A stretch of 64,000 bases of DNA from positions 90,272,001 to 90,336,000 of the forward strand of contig OX597823.1 of the NCBI GenBank assembly GCA_951406725.2, given 5' to 3'. Both the position numbers and the translations under genes were made by a program. Under the pieces are notes generated by a model. The model had not been told where the DNA came from, made no database searches, and saw nothing but the letters and a program-made list of their open reading frames with translations. This DNA comes from Octopus vulgaris (taxonomy: Eukaryota). The first letter of the stretch is position 1, and the number at the start of each line of letters is the position of its first letter. This document shows positions 41,137 to 50,963 of the stretch, in pieces.

Positions 41137-43842
41137 CTAGGAGTGGCAGGAGAGAAAAGAAATTAGGTCAGGGAAGTGGATCAAGTTGCTGTCAGAAGAT
41201 GATGATGACGAGGAGGAGGAGGAGATGATTTATAATGATGATGATGATTATAATGAAGAAGAAGATGATGATGGTGGTGGTGGTGGTGTTGATAACACAA
41301 AGAACTGGATCATGAGTAGTCATGAGAACAAATGGTGGTGGTGGTAATAATTTCATCCAATAAAAGATTTTTTTTTTTTAATCTGGTACTTATTCTATTA
41401 GTCCCTTTTGCCAAGCTGCTAAGTTATGGGGGAACATAAACCAACACAGCTGTCAAGGGGCAGTGGAGAACAAACATAATGTCTCATGCACACACAGGAT
41501 TTCTTTCAAGTTTCCACCTACCAGATTCACACACAAAGTTTTGATCAAACTGGTGCTCTGGTAGAAGACACTTTCCCATGGTGCCTCACAGTGGGACTGA
41601 ACTCAAGACCACATGGTTGGGAAGCAAGCTTCTTGACTGCACAGCCATGCCTGCATGCATATTGAGAGAAATGAGCCTGGAATGGAATTATGGAGGGAGA
41701 TGCATCTGGACGAAATAGAGAGAAAGGGACTTAAGTTGAAGGAGATTCTTCAAAGAGAATTCTAGAACAAAGGTATTGGTAACCTATTTTAGTTGTCTTA
41801 AATGAGTCATCGTTGAAGTACATTTGTGAGTGTATGTAGGTCAGAAATAAACTGACTGACCACTGGCTGACCACTAAATTGACATAAATTATCAGAGGAT
41901 TTTTTTTTTTTTCTGGAAGGTAGGGTGTAAGTTTTCAAGTTCTCAACCATTTTTTACATATGATCCCTTTTGATCCCTATTTTACTTGGGATGGTAGTGG
42001 GGCTCCTAGCCATTCGATGTCTAAAAACCCCTATTATATTTTTATGATTAAATATTATTAGGAATTGCATAAAAAAATGTTAAAATATTTGGTGTGTTGT
42101 AGAAGTAAAACCAGTTTATTGCAGATAAATTTTAACAAGAAAATCTTATATGGACCCGCAAGGATCACATGGATCCTCAAGGGGCATGTGGACACTGGTT
42201 GAGAACCACTGGTGTAGGAAAAGAGGCAGTGCCAAGCTTAATGATAAAATGGAAATGGTTTGATGTGTGGAGGCCATGGGCTTCTCCTGTGTGTTAGATC
42301 CTATCTGCTAATGGTGTGTAGTGTGAGAGAGCCAGTTAGTTTATGTCTTCACTGTCTCGTGTCCCGATGCAGAAAAAGGTAGTTGTAAGGGCTCGTGCCA
42401 GAATCTCACACACTAATGTTATCTAGCAATCTTGTTTTAAACCCACAGTCAAGGGGGTAACTGTTCCTACACCATTAATGTCCCTAGAGAATTTCTCTAA
42501 GTCAACATCAGCTTGGAAGGAAACCCAGAAAGCCAACATTGCTTCTAGGAAGAAAGAACCGTGGGGGTTGGATACAACAAGGGTGATGGGAGGAAGAGAA
42601 ACAAGTGGGGTGGGGATGTTTGAGTGGGGGTGGCATGAGTCCACCTGGTTACAAGTAATAAGGGCCATGATAGTATTTTGGTCAGCCTATGAACTTTTCA
42701 GCTGAAACTCACGCACACACACACACACATGTATGTATGTAAATATGTATGTCATACACAACTTTGGCTGTCCTACTAGAATATAAATAATTCTTCTCAT
42801 TATGAGAATTCATCAAATGATAATTATCTGAATATAAAATAATTAAACAAGAGAAGAAACTACCCCTCCCCCCTCCCACTCCACTTACACACAACATAAA
42901 TAACATCAATAACCATTTCAAGAACAACCACAAAAATGTATCAAATTTGAATAATTAATAAGATGTAAGACGGGTTATTTTGATTAAGCATCGATTAGAG
43001 AAAACACCAACCATAAAAACAAAAAAAAATCTGATGAGGTAAAAGATTAGGATGATGGGGTGGGGTGGAATAGGTTGCTTGTGGTGTTTGTGTTTTGGTC
43101 AAACCAGATCAGAGAGTCTTGTGGTCAAATAGCATTTTAGTATGCAAAACCACTGTGTCGGAGTTTCAGACATAGTATATCTAGGACTATATCATTTAAT
43201 AGGTTCCGCTGTTCCACTGACTGGCATTCCATCGGTTATGATGACGAGGGCCCCAGTCGACCTGATCTGCAAATCAGTCTGTTTGTGAAATTAACATGCA
43301 AGTGGCTGAGCACTCCACAGACACGCACACCCTTAACGTAGTTCTCAGCGAGATTTACTATGACAAAGCAGGCCCTTTGAAATGCAGGCACAGATCATTT
43401 TTGCCAGCTGAGTGGACTGGAGCAATGTGAAATAAAGTGTCTTGCTCAAGGACACAATGCACTCCTGGGAATTGAACTCATGACCTTGCAATCGTGAGCT
43501 GAATACCTGAATCACTAAGCTACATGCCTTCATTGAGACATAGTTGTAAGCTAGACTACATTAGTCAGTATTAGTTTCCTTCTTCTAAGATGGTAGGAGG
43601 TGATTTGAAAGAGAGTGTTGAGGGTTCAATCTCCATGTAGAGCTAACCTTGTAGACTGGGTTGAGTAAAGGTAGTTGTTGCTGTATTGTTTAGCCCTTGG
43701 TCAGGCTTGACTGAGCCGACATATGATCAAAAGTGTTCCAGTTATGGCTATCACATCTTTTTATATATTAAGGGCTACATTGTTAAAAAAATAATAAAAA
43801 ATAATGATGATAATAATAATAAGAAGAAGAAAAAGAAGAAGA

Positions 43843-45015
43843 ATGCACCACCCTAAGGCAGATATAGAACAACTTTATCTGCAAAGAAAAGAGGGAGGCC
43901 ATGGACTTTTACAACTGGAATTAGCAATGAAGATTGCCACAATTGGCCTAGACACCTACCTGAAAAACTCTGATGACTGGATGTTAAAACTTGTCTCAAA
44001 ACATGAAAACAAGAAAGCATCAAACTCAGTAACAATACAGGCAAAGGAATGTCTAAGTGAATTCCAAATACAACAAATTCCAGAATTAGACATACTAGAA
44101 ACAAGCGCAGAAAAAGCTAAGCGTATGAAAACCCATGCTAAAACTGCTGCCTTAGATATTCTTACTGATAAATGGGAAGAGAAGCCTCTCGATGGCAACT
44201 ACCCAAAGAGAGTGAATAATGCCGATGTTGACAAAGCTCTTATCCATCAATGACTAATGGCCTCTGGCTTAAAATCTGAAATGGAAGGGTTTATCATAGC
44301 AGCCCAAGATCAATACCTACCTACAAGGAACTATCAGGCCAATATATTAAAGAACGGTAGCTTCCCAACATGTCGTGTATGTCAATAACAAAATGAGACT
44401 ATTGATTATGTTGTCTCCATGTGCAGTTTTCTTGCACCTACAAAGTATCTCAACAGGCATGATAGAGCTGCACAATATATTCACTGGGTAATTTGCAAAA
44501 ACCTGGACCTGCCTCATGATAAAAACTGGTGGGAACACAAACCACCTCCAGTGCTTGAAAATGATCACATCTCACACCTCTGGAACTTCACTATTCAAAC
44601 TGACAGAAAGATAGATGCAAATAGGCCAGACATCATATTGAAAGACTTCAGACGAAAAACATGCCTCCTCATTGATATGACTGTCCCAATCGATATAAAC
44701 GTATCTGTCAAGACCTACCAAAAACTGAGCAAATATAAAGATCTTGAAATAGAAATTAGCAAAAATGTGGAACCTCAAGACTAAAACAATACCTGTTGTC
44801 ATAGGTGCCCTAGGAATGATAGCAAAAGGGGCTGATTGCTACCTAGCTCAGATACCAGGAAACCCCAAAATGGCAGAAATTCAAAAGATAGTGCTCATGG
44901 GAACTGCTCATATCCTACACAAAATACTTTCTATGTAATCTCAAATTTTAAAACAAACTCATAATTTTCTTATGGTTTCTTAAACATTCTCTAGAACAAC
45001 ACTATTTACAAAACC
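43843..45015 (+). pseudogene. 5'-truncated R4/Dong-type non-LTR retrotransposon (CCHC-like knuckle plus restriction-like endonuclease)
   Basis: HPKADIEQLYLQRKEGGHGL, AAQDQ, CRVC...C, RHD, NRPDII...LIDMTVP...KLSKYKDL, IPVVIGALG, IQKIVLMGTAHILHKIL*; several stops and a frameshift; 5' junction in (TAA)/(GAA) repeats. Confidence 0.92.
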
Positions 45016-45320: not shown

Positions 45321-45723
45321 CATAAAGGAAAAAAGGCAGAAGGCTACCTGTAGGACTCAAACCCATATCTATTGTAAACCAAACAGCTATGATACCATTA
45401 CACCAAGGTAGTTTTCCACCTTTCATCCCTCCAAATTCGATATTTTAATCTTACATGTAAGAAAAATTGTTTGATGTTCTGAACTTGGTTGTGGTAATTC
45501 CTGAAACATCACTGATGTCACACCATATTAGGCTCTTGCTGATACAGTTTGGCATAGCACTGAAGGTGCAGAGATGGAAAAGTCAAAGTTTCATACAACT
45601 TTGTCACCTGACTGTACTCTGTACTGGCAACATTCATTTGGAAAGAGTGACCTTATACACAGCACAAACATTTCATCATTATAAACAAAGAAATCAGCAA
45701 GAAAACAAAAGAGTCTACAATAT

Positions 45724-47508: not shown

Positions 47509-48041
47509 GGTGTCCCAAAAAAATGTATACACACCTTAAATAATTGTAAATTTGGGGTTTATTATAATTCGAATAATTTTCAACATGTAAAAGAATTTAC
47601 AAATATCATTCTATTGTCTTGTTATCGCATGTTCTCAAACTGATGTCCATTCTGCTCCAGACTCTGCTGACAACGCGAAGCGATGGAATGGCACACATCA
47701 TGGAACAATTCCCTTGGTATATTCGTACATTCATGTTCAATGGTTGCCCTCAATTGAACGACTGTTGCAGGTTTCTGTGCGTAGACTTTGTCCTTTAGGT
47801 ATCCCCATAAAAAGAAGTCTAGTGGTGTGAGGTCTGGTGAACGTGGAGGGTATTCGACAAAACCTCTCCGTCCAATCCACCTGTTTGGCAAGATCCCATC
47901 AAGAAAGGATCTAACATCGCGATGGTAGTGTGGAGGTGCCCCATCTTGCTGGAAATAAAACTCTTCCTGTTCAAAGTCCTCTCTAATGCTTGGCATGACA
48001 GACTGTTGCACCATGTGTATACATTTTTTTGGGACACCCTA
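47506..48041 (-). mobile_element. Internally deleted Tc1/mariner element, DD41D (rosa-type) transposase C-terminus
   Basis: 27-bp TIRs CAGGGTGTCCCAAAAAAATGTATACAC, TA flanks; ORF 47622-48014 FQQDGAPPH...WIGRRG...PPRSPDLTPLDFFLWG with 41 residues between the last two catalytic Asp. Confidence 0.93.
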
Positions 48042-49445: not shown

Positions 49446-49863
49446 CTCACGCCAGACTTCTCTCTGATGACCTCGCTACTGATGTGCTCTCTCAACAAGA
49501 TTCCAAGCAGTGACCTTTCCATGGCTCTTTGAGCCGTTATCAGTCTCTGCTCTTCTCTCTTTGTTGTAGCCCATGTTTCACTACCATATAACATTGAGGG
49601 ATGTCATTGCAGAATATACCTGCAGCAAGTTTAGATGGGCTGGACACGTCGCCCGGCTCACCGGTGGACCTGCGCAGTTGTCGAGTCGTACATGCATGAG
49701 CGGAAATGACCTCTTGGAAGGCCTCCACGACGGTGGAGTTATGATTTCAGGAGGGCGATTGGGATCACGTGGATGAGAAAGGCGCGATCCAGAGAGGAGT
49801 AGACAGCGTGCTGTGACCAGAGGTGTCAAATGGATGCCCGACGGACTGGTCGGTCAAGGTGAT
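49446..49863. mobile_element. RTE-type LINE 3' fragment with 5' inversion
   Basis: 49446-49596 (-) encodes MLYGSETWATTKREEQRL...EKSGVR; 49595-49863 (+) continues RDVIAEYTCSKFRWAGHVARL...GRPPRRW. Confidence 0.88.
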
Positions 49864-50034
49864 ATATGTGTGTGTGTGTGTGTGTATAACAAATGGCTAA
49901 GGTCAGTTGGGTGTGAAGCTGGGGTATTTCTAGTGAAGCACTCAACCTGAGTACTGGGCGAATGAACACTGTCGGGATCCAAGCCAAGGCTGGAATACTT
50001 TTGTAGAAAATTCAAGTTTCACAATGATTATACT

Positions 50035-50425
50035 GTCATATAGGTATGGTAAAGGGTAAATGATCCAATGAAAAGGAGAAGACAAAGAAAATTCTTTTAC
50101 ACATCTTTAATTAAAAGTTACAATTGTTTCATGTGATTCTGTACACTCTCCATTTGCAACGCCAGTGTCCGCAAAAACATTACATAATTTATGCAGTTTT
50201 AGCCATCGGAGAGGCACCTCCTGATACTTGTACCAAGGTCAAATAGACACACAATGTAATAGCATGACTTTGATACAAGTCTGAGGAAGTGCCTCTCCAA
50301 TGCCTAAAACTGCATACATTACATAATTTTTCCTTCAAGAATGGAGATGATACAGAAACATGTATAACTTATTATTAAATAAGTATAAATGAATTTTCTA
50401 AGTGTTCTTCTTTTCATTGGAGTAT
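50035..50425. mobile_element. Head-to-head pair of hammerhead-bearing Penelope-like termini
   Basis: Plus motif 50277-50370 AAGT-CTGAGGA...GAAA-CATGTA-TA-ACTT; minus motif 50115-50229 AAGT-ATCAGGA...GAAA-CAATTG-TA-ACTT; ~50-bp inverted arms; homologous tails ...cttttcattgga. Confidence 0.7.
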
Positions 50426-50963
50426 ATATATATATATAATAATAATAATAATAATATATGATATGTAATATACATACACACATATATATAAAAGAGAATG
50501 ACTCTCCCCAGACAACAGAATATGCTTCAACACACAAACTCATGTAAAGAATCTTGCAAATCAAATCCACAAATGAAATATAAATATATATATATATATA
50601 TATCATCATCATCATTGTTTAATGTCCGCTTTCCATGCTAGCATGGATTGGATGGTTTGATCGGGGTCTGGGAAGCCAGGAGGCTGCACCAGGCTTCAAT
50701 CTGATCTGGCAGTGTTTCTACAGCTTGATGCCCTTCCTAACACCAACCACTCCGTGAGTGTAGAGGGTGCTTTTTACGTTCCACCGGCACGGACACCAGT
50801 CAAGGCAGCACTGGCATCGGCCACATTTGGATGGTGGTTTTTACATGCCACTGGCATAGGTATCACAACTATCCATTTGATTATTATTTTGATGTTGATA
50901 TATATATATGTGTGTGCATGTAACTAACTACATATATGCATGTATGTATATATATATATATAT

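Follow-up and report, generated by a model that had tools for sequence, protein, structure and literature searches.

Positions 49,890-50,420 of the window (the whole 64-kb stretch of Octopus vulgaris DNA under analysis) very probably hold a head-to-head pair of 5'-truncated 3' ends, or pseudo-LTRs (pLTRs), of an old and mutated Penelope-like element of the Hydra clade, likely generated by one insertion into a (TA/TG)n tract. Two alternatives had been put forward in the original prediction, the inverted pseudo-LTR structure of a Penelope-like element and a compact element whose two strands each bear a ribozyme; the former is supported by the analysis, and narrowed to a single clade. The family to which the locus belongs is old and newly recognised, its clade and layout being already known; as a dead copy, the locus is of little weight by itself. 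Mildly new are the long stem II of the hammerhead, the long tail and a count of inverted pairs which favours two primers.

Layout of the locus and origin of the mirror motif

A working family reference of 906 positions (q1-906), with a TTC run masked, was computed from the loci collected in the genome. The features of the locus are reported in Table 1.

Table 1. Features of the inverted pair, in window coordinates; q, position on the family reference; E1, sharp 3' end of the family
Feature	Positions	Strand	Remarks	Basis
(TG)n/TA microsatellite, left boundary	49860..49889	.	likely target site; no target duplication resolvable	sequence
Long tail of the left arm (q731-906), beyond E1	49890..50064	-		extension and end mapping
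Body of the left arm (q575-730)	50065..50217	-	begins at first base of stem II	alignment, likelihoods
3' half of the mirror hammerhead	50115..50144	-	stem II 3' strand, insert, GAAA, CAATTG, TA, ACTT	sequence, alignment
Junction zone, family upstream sequence (q498-527)	50217..50241	+		parent likelihoods
Right arm (q498-730), 5'-truncated pLTR copy	50217..50420	+	stops at E1 (50,420)	end mapping
Type I hammerhead motif of the right arm	50277..50370	+	predicted cut after 50366	sequence, descriptor
(TA)n/(TAA)n microsatellite, right boundary	50421..50460	.	likely target site	sequence

The two arms are homologous: their local alignment scores 163, whereas 300 shuffles averaged 25 and never exceeded 50, in agreement with the earlier remark that both motifs lead into homologous tails. 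Identity to the family reference is 88.6% over 317 nt for the left arm, tail counted, and 84.8% over 132 nt for the right one. The interval initially delimited, 50035..50425, falls short on one side, as the left arm (q575-906) reaches about 49,890. In other copies the stretch equivalent to its tail continues into the start of an ORF, while the window pair holds none. A transcript of 50,035-50,425 is predicted to fold into a single long hairpin (-136 kcal/mol, z = -13.6; 0/100 shuffles equally stable), and the microRNA-like Rfam matches at the locus reflect this inverted repeat. The junction is not an assembly artefact, because it is crossed, with 2-3 differences, by contigs from three public runs (two studies), one of which is possibly the source of the assembly itself. 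Two exact pieces of the sequence were found in a public run presumed to be RNA, which is no proof of transcription. Other remnants, together with a tRNA-like match at 30 bits, are located in the window at 43798-44784 (+), 47622-48038 (-) and 45342-45412 (-); by their motifs, the remnants resemble the end of a LINE reverse transcriptase (RT) and a Tc1/mariner transposase.

The minus-strand motif had been described as a mirror motif, with a palindromic stem III, the same stem I as the plus motif, a decayed core and a different stem II loop. GAAA-CAATTG-TA-ACTT and the closing CTCTCC/GGAGAG can indeed be read from the sequence. The palindrome CAATTG is a feature of the window mirror, being absent from the other 73 complete arms, which mostly contain CATTTG, CATGTG or CATATG at this position. 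By alignment, the loop is homologous to that of the plus motif, a separate deletion having occurred in each; in the left arm it is of 12 nt, and is accompanied by a 9-nt insert (50131-50139) before GAAA.

The supposed core has a different origin. About 55-65 nt before stem I, the family contains an upstream stretch that can pair in part with the 5' half of its hammerhead. The junction zone, which shares this complementarity, mimics stem I and a 'decayed core' when read in reverse. For 50,217-50,229, derivation from the upstream sequence of the plus arm is about 2,000-fold likelier than descent from a core of the opposite strand altered by mutation (log10 likelihood -1.66 vs -5.03); the final 8 nt of the zone fit the upstream stretch too, leaving 4 nt between unexplained. 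Because of this far better fit, the left arm, which is devoid of the 5' strand of stem I and of CUGANGA, is read as starting at the first base of stem II, a core never having been present there. The ATCAGGA of the mirror comes from the junction, and the 9-nt insert separates stem II from GAAA. Similarly, the 'same stem I' is an effect of the junction, which lies in exact register with the upstream hairpin of the family (q498 opposite q575). The motifs are present, but they form no twin-ribozyme device.

The upstream complementarity is weak (-14.3 kcal/mol; 51/1,000 shuffles as good) and is not common to other Hydra copies. The possibility that this hairpin acts as a conserved off-switch of the ribozyme was considered and rejected, its pairing probability being 0.75 in the family vs 0.02-0.24 in three other Hydra copies; the reading is also only borderline against shuffles.

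The repeat family and its assignment to the Hydra clade

Searches of the O. vulgaris genome (2.8 Gb) returned 540 and 589 first-look candidates, 40 of which were scored in each case; at least 91 matches were obtained in the first search (40 scored of 540 candidates), and the family has hundreds of relatives, or candidate places, in the genome. Additional searches lengthened the repeat in both directions. The final set was derived from 155 fetched loci, merged into 110 loci with 145 arms; made up of the best matches, it is a biased sample and not a census. The median identity of the arms to the reference is 89.5% (117 arms) and the best is 94%, on which basis the family is considered old.

The 5' ends of the arms are scattered, and no pile-up was found at the predicted cut: 4/145 arms start within q668-690, in four different places, so the ends give no sign that the template RNA is cleaved there. 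The 3' ends, in contrast, fall into two classes. E1, found in 53 of the 145 arms, is a sharp end at q730, 54 nt beyond the predicted cut, while E2 (71 arms) is ragged, being scored at q780 or further and mostly located at q880-950; the other 21 arms are interrupted earlier. Most ends adjoin (TA)n, (TG)n, (CA)n or (TC)n. The combination of 5' truncation, fixed 3' ends and inverted copies with a one-sided tail is that of EN+ Penelope-like elements. Five arms (L178:2404-5395; L106, L111, L159, L175) start at q721-733, exactly at E1, and in L178 the element both starts and ends at E1, with an ORF between; besides serving as a start site, E1 may also be a place where the DNA of the element's own end is cut.

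As a coding sequence, the 906-nt reference contains stops in all six frames, but two loci run on past E2 into coding sequence. L178 contains a broken frame with RWK and DKT, an inserted LINE, YRDD with the RT thumb, and then the family end again; its frame matches intact frames of 778 and 717 aa from the same genome, with E values of 2e-39 and 2e-23. DKT is also present in L209 and L222. Overall, L178, L209, L224 and L225 have broken RT and GIY-YIG frames joined to the family end, the window copy itself having none; no intact ORF of the family was found. The repeat is identified as the 3' end, or pLTR, of a Hydra-like element approximately 5 kb long because, in L224 and L225, RT-endonuclease remnants are followed 1.3-2.2 kb later by q104-890 in the same direction.

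The marks of the Hydra clade given in section 11 of PMC8557442 are RWK, DKT replacing DKG, (TA)n targets and a canonical hammerhead. The family resembles the C-terminal EN+ elements of this clade (Hydra-1_Obim, Penelope-13_HM) described there in RWK, in DKT and in a C-terminal GIY-YIG-type domain, as well as in its (TA)n targets and in a type I hammerhead near the 3' end (PMC8557442). Insertion into (TA)n is evident in the 3' flanks of the family, (TG)n, (CA)n and (TC)n being also seen. A CxCX5C linker is present in the related intact frames of 717 and 962 aa and degraded in the family's own remnants, and Pfam detects a weak GIY-YIG match (E 0.013) in one of the three intact frames of the young families. 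Differences were also noted. The motif sequence of Hydra-1_Obim, as published, is not that of this family, and Hydra elements are described as being under 3 kb (PMC8557442), while the distance from the first ORF match to the tail is about 5 kb in L224 and 4 kb in L225, with a post-ORF stretch of about 2 kb. The assignment to the clade is based on motifs and similarity. The young and abundant Neptune-like elements with a 781-aa ORF were rejected as partners of the repeat, as they showed no DNA match to the family and no ORF protein match at E 1e-3.

The genome also contains young Hydra-like families, at least three in number, whose frames of 778, 717 and 962 aa are intact (L210, L211, L212-L214, L218-L220, L215-L217, L221). 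The 717-aa family forms 2,590-bp tandem arrays, in which the direction flips mid-array; the 962-aa frame carries asparagine-rich inserts. A hammerhead core CCGAAGA, with C at position 4, is found in the 717-aa family and in one 778-aa copy.

A hammerhead with a long stem II

The hammerhead of the family reference is of type I. A 4-bp stem I is followed by CUGAGGA, an extra A and a stem II of 5 + 6 bp, which bears a long arm separating core and GAAA by 91 nt; an extra G precedes GAAA, and a six-base helix III, closed by C-G, leads to UA. The reference passes a strict hammerhead descriptor, while 0/2,000 dinucleotide shuffles do. The same descriptor found no match on either strand of the window, where Rfam reported no hammerhead family at gathering score, and none in 49,900-50,600 at E up to 10.

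All segments of the plus motif were confirmed at their expected places: AAGT (50277-80), CTGAGGA (50281-87), A, GTGCC-TCTCCA (50289-99), TGGAGA (50342-47), GAAA (50355-58), CATGTA, TA (50365-66) and ACTT (50367-70). The intact core and the stem I attributed to it are also real, since CUGANGA, GAAA and UH are in place and the four base pairs of stem I are formed. The inner stem II, however, has 3 bp followed by a C-A mismatch, vs 5 bp in the family, and stem III carries C-A instead of the family C-G. A 24-nt deletion shortens the long stem II to 67 nt vs 91. Both window motifs are predicted to be inactive. The deletion also removes from the right arm q610-624, which in the long stem II of the reference consists of a pyrimidine run and TAG, a candidate 3' splice site.

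The hammerhead is intact in 4/75 complete copies (L052, L063, L072, L156). Its core positions and the downstream flank have decayed equally, both being conserved at 92%. Within the family, changes mostly break stem pairs and no covariation is seen; across families of the same genome, in an alignment anchored by hand, stem sequences differ yet still pair. The most variable non-CpG sites are N7 (59 G, 17 T, 8 A) and one base of loop III (54 T, 35 G, 6 A), at both of which variation is tolerated by hammerheads. This is a hint that the source elements may have been under selection for the hammerhead fold. In the source element, the hammerhead was likely a real ribozyme of the dimer type, with an unusually long stem II. 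Short palindromic helices III have been associated with cleavage as dimers and low activity (PMC4209133; PMC6765202).

Other hammerheads of the genome share the same plan with different stems: the distance from core to GAAA is 55-56 nt in the 778-aa family, 31 nt in the 717-aa family and 85 nt in the 962-aa family, which has just 2 bp of stem I beside the core. L129 and L137 contain hammerheads with distances of 59 and 61 nt. The long-stem-II repeats at L129:90-574 and L137:1013-1930 are arranged head-to-head, with one short and one long 3' end, and are inserted in (TA)n directly behind Neptune-like elements. Five loci with GIY-YIG elements (L128, L130, L131, L134, L146) contain a hammerhead with a U3-A8 core variant and a short stem II.

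Published Hydra hammerheads often carry one additional base at either side of stem II (PMC8557442 File S2), as found here, but the stems II given for them are of 3-7 bp with loops of 3-10 nt (PMC8557442), against the 91 nt and the A/G extra bases of this family. The minimal hammerheads of metazoan Penelope-like elements, as described in PMC4209133, are similar in the 4-bp stem I, the enlarged stem II, the extra base after A9 and the small near-palindromic helix III; they differ in a stem II of 7-8 bp, in place of the 5 + 6 bp and the long arm found here. Among the papers listed in the literature search, none contained the phrase 'long stem II', although descriptions of dimeric Penelope-like hammerheads may include such stems. 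The length of stem II shows why descriptors designed for short loops under-count elements of this kind.

Inverted pairs and their formation

Head-to-head pairs were found in 29/110 loci (30 pairs listed), most loci being made up of single arms. The search for copies sharing the junction of the window, suggested together with the original prediction, revealed that junctions are scattered along the element and that the window junction is not common to other loci. Eleven pairs, in which one arm is interrupted before E1, were left out of end scoring. In all the 19 pairs with both 3' ends scorable, one arm ends at E1 and the other at E2: one stops at the sharp end, while its partner extends 150-220 nt past that point. 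By the end frequencies of the sample itself, the chance of such a result is near one in a million; as the queries used to pick loci favour tail-bearing copies, it was also evaluated for the worst-case bias, in which one arm is forced to be E2 and the free arm is E1 in 14/18, and by this hand count 18/18 would occur about 1 in 100 times. Each arm contains sequence absent from its partner in 13/19 pairs, with no overlap at all between arms in 4, so neither arm is a plain copy of the other. The same asymmetry is seen in the young 717-aa family, in 4/4 inverted insertions for which both ends lay within the stretch: one arm ends near q295 and the other at q329-362, a fifth insertion having one end outside it. 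Junctions of this family share 0-2 nt at 4/5, with extra bases at the fifth.

The constant association of one E1 and one E2 end favours the formation of pairs from two separately primed cDNAs. A biochemical parallel is offered by PAc, a Poseidon element of Anolis: the purified protein nicks both strands of the target, extends each of them, and uses as starting points two internal sites of the RNA that bound the tail (PMC11167929). PAc resembles the present family in having these two start sites past the hammerhead, in its AT-rich targets and in the use of both strands; it belongs to another clade, and its ORF starts in stem II, while the ORF of the present family lies about 300 nt beyond the cut. 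By the mechanism we infer, the enzyme of the element would nick both target strands and prime two cDNAs on the RNA of the element: one of them at E1, the sharp site just past the predicted cut, and the other at E2, further into the tail. Both cDNAs would stop early, and their heads would be joined via the weak built-in complementarity between the hammerhead 5' half and the sequence just upstream.

For the window, origin of the pair from a single event is likely, though unproved by the sequence; its arms have 4 derived changes in common, compared with a background mean of 1.3 (95th percentile). A broader proposal, to which we give slightly less than even credence, is that Hydra-clade elements of this genome combine an undescribed long-armed hammerhead, with 55-91 nt from core to GAAA (and, in the window family, an extra A/G pair) and missed by published descriptors, with a strict two-primer rule in inverted insertions, one primer being placed at a sharp site and the other in a tail of 70-220 nt, and the RNA being copied separately for each arm. 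If true, the rule would provide evidence from the genome that Penelope-like elements use twin priming rather than self-priming; among the papers listed in the literature search, 'twin priming' occurred in one, a review on human elements. The family statistics constitute a small, testable addition to the choice between two primed cDNAs and fold-back at inverted Penelope-like ends.

Inverted 5'-truncated pLTRs of similar appearance are on record (PMC3846280; PMC8557442 Fig. 2 legend), with a head-to-head arrangement, a tail on one arm and a short junction overlap. The published tail is of 30-40 nt, vs 150-220 here, and the window pair lacks an ORF. A 5'-truncated inverted copy of Penelope-13_HM, with the hammerhead on the other strand, is also listed in PMC8557442. 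Self-priming is favoured for inverted pLTRs in PMC3846280, where palindromes at inverted junctions are reported, and the inversion of the same element by fold-back of one strand at its built-in hairpin would explain the exact register of the window junction. We consider it unlikely, since the arm supplying the fold-back end stops at E1 while the arm copied from it extends 175 nt beyond, and no template is left for the difference; the pairs with private sequence or no overlap pose the same problem. In addition, a junction overlap of this type, 25 nt long, was found only in the window among 15 junctions examined.

Still less probable is an independent arrival of the two arms, a second insertion of the family having landed in inverted orientation at the head of an earlier one. 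This would fit the similarity of the window arms, which is no closer than that of unrelated copies (81% vs 82%), their difference at the polymorphic loop III position, and the habit of these elements to nest in each other's microsatellite targets, as in L129 and L137. The divergence, however, is explained by age alone, each arm being 11-15% from the reference, and the junction contains no microsatellite or target remnant. Independent events would not be expected to yield the strict pairing of E1 with E2, and simple tail-to-tail pairs are lacking (2/110 loci, both complex). The preferred reading is still that of one insertion with two primed cDNAs.

The least credible reading is that of a compact element, or of a viroid-like replicon, whose two strands both encode an active hammerhead, as suggested by GAAA-C..G/A-TA-ACTT with matching AAGT on both strands: the mirror lacks a 5' half with CUGANGA of its own and has the insert before GAAA, the two arms pair with each other in a long hairpin that leaves no room for the hammerhead fold, 81/110 loci contain no head-to-head pair, and the variation of the junction among the 29 inverted loci indicates that no fixed two-strand element exists. 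PMC4209133 mentions hammerheads that occur in pairs on opposite strands, at distances of 100-700 bp. The family shares with non-LTR retrozymes (bioRxiv 10.64898/2026.07.22.740005) the condition of short non-coding hammerhead repeats related to pLTRs, but was not classified among them, as it has its own ORF and, with the exception of one partial tandem (L055), no tandem hammerhead arrays such as those reported for retrozymes.

Two further arrangements were observed among the loci. Five copies at G000:C16:20.5-20.8 Mb (L065-L068, L070) have nearly identical flanks, and are likely the product of segmental duplication rather than of separate insertions. In L083 (G000:C11:49677434-49678252) an inversion without duplication is found, q1-135 being inverted ahead of q108-906, an arrangement resembling the twin-priming products of LINE-1.
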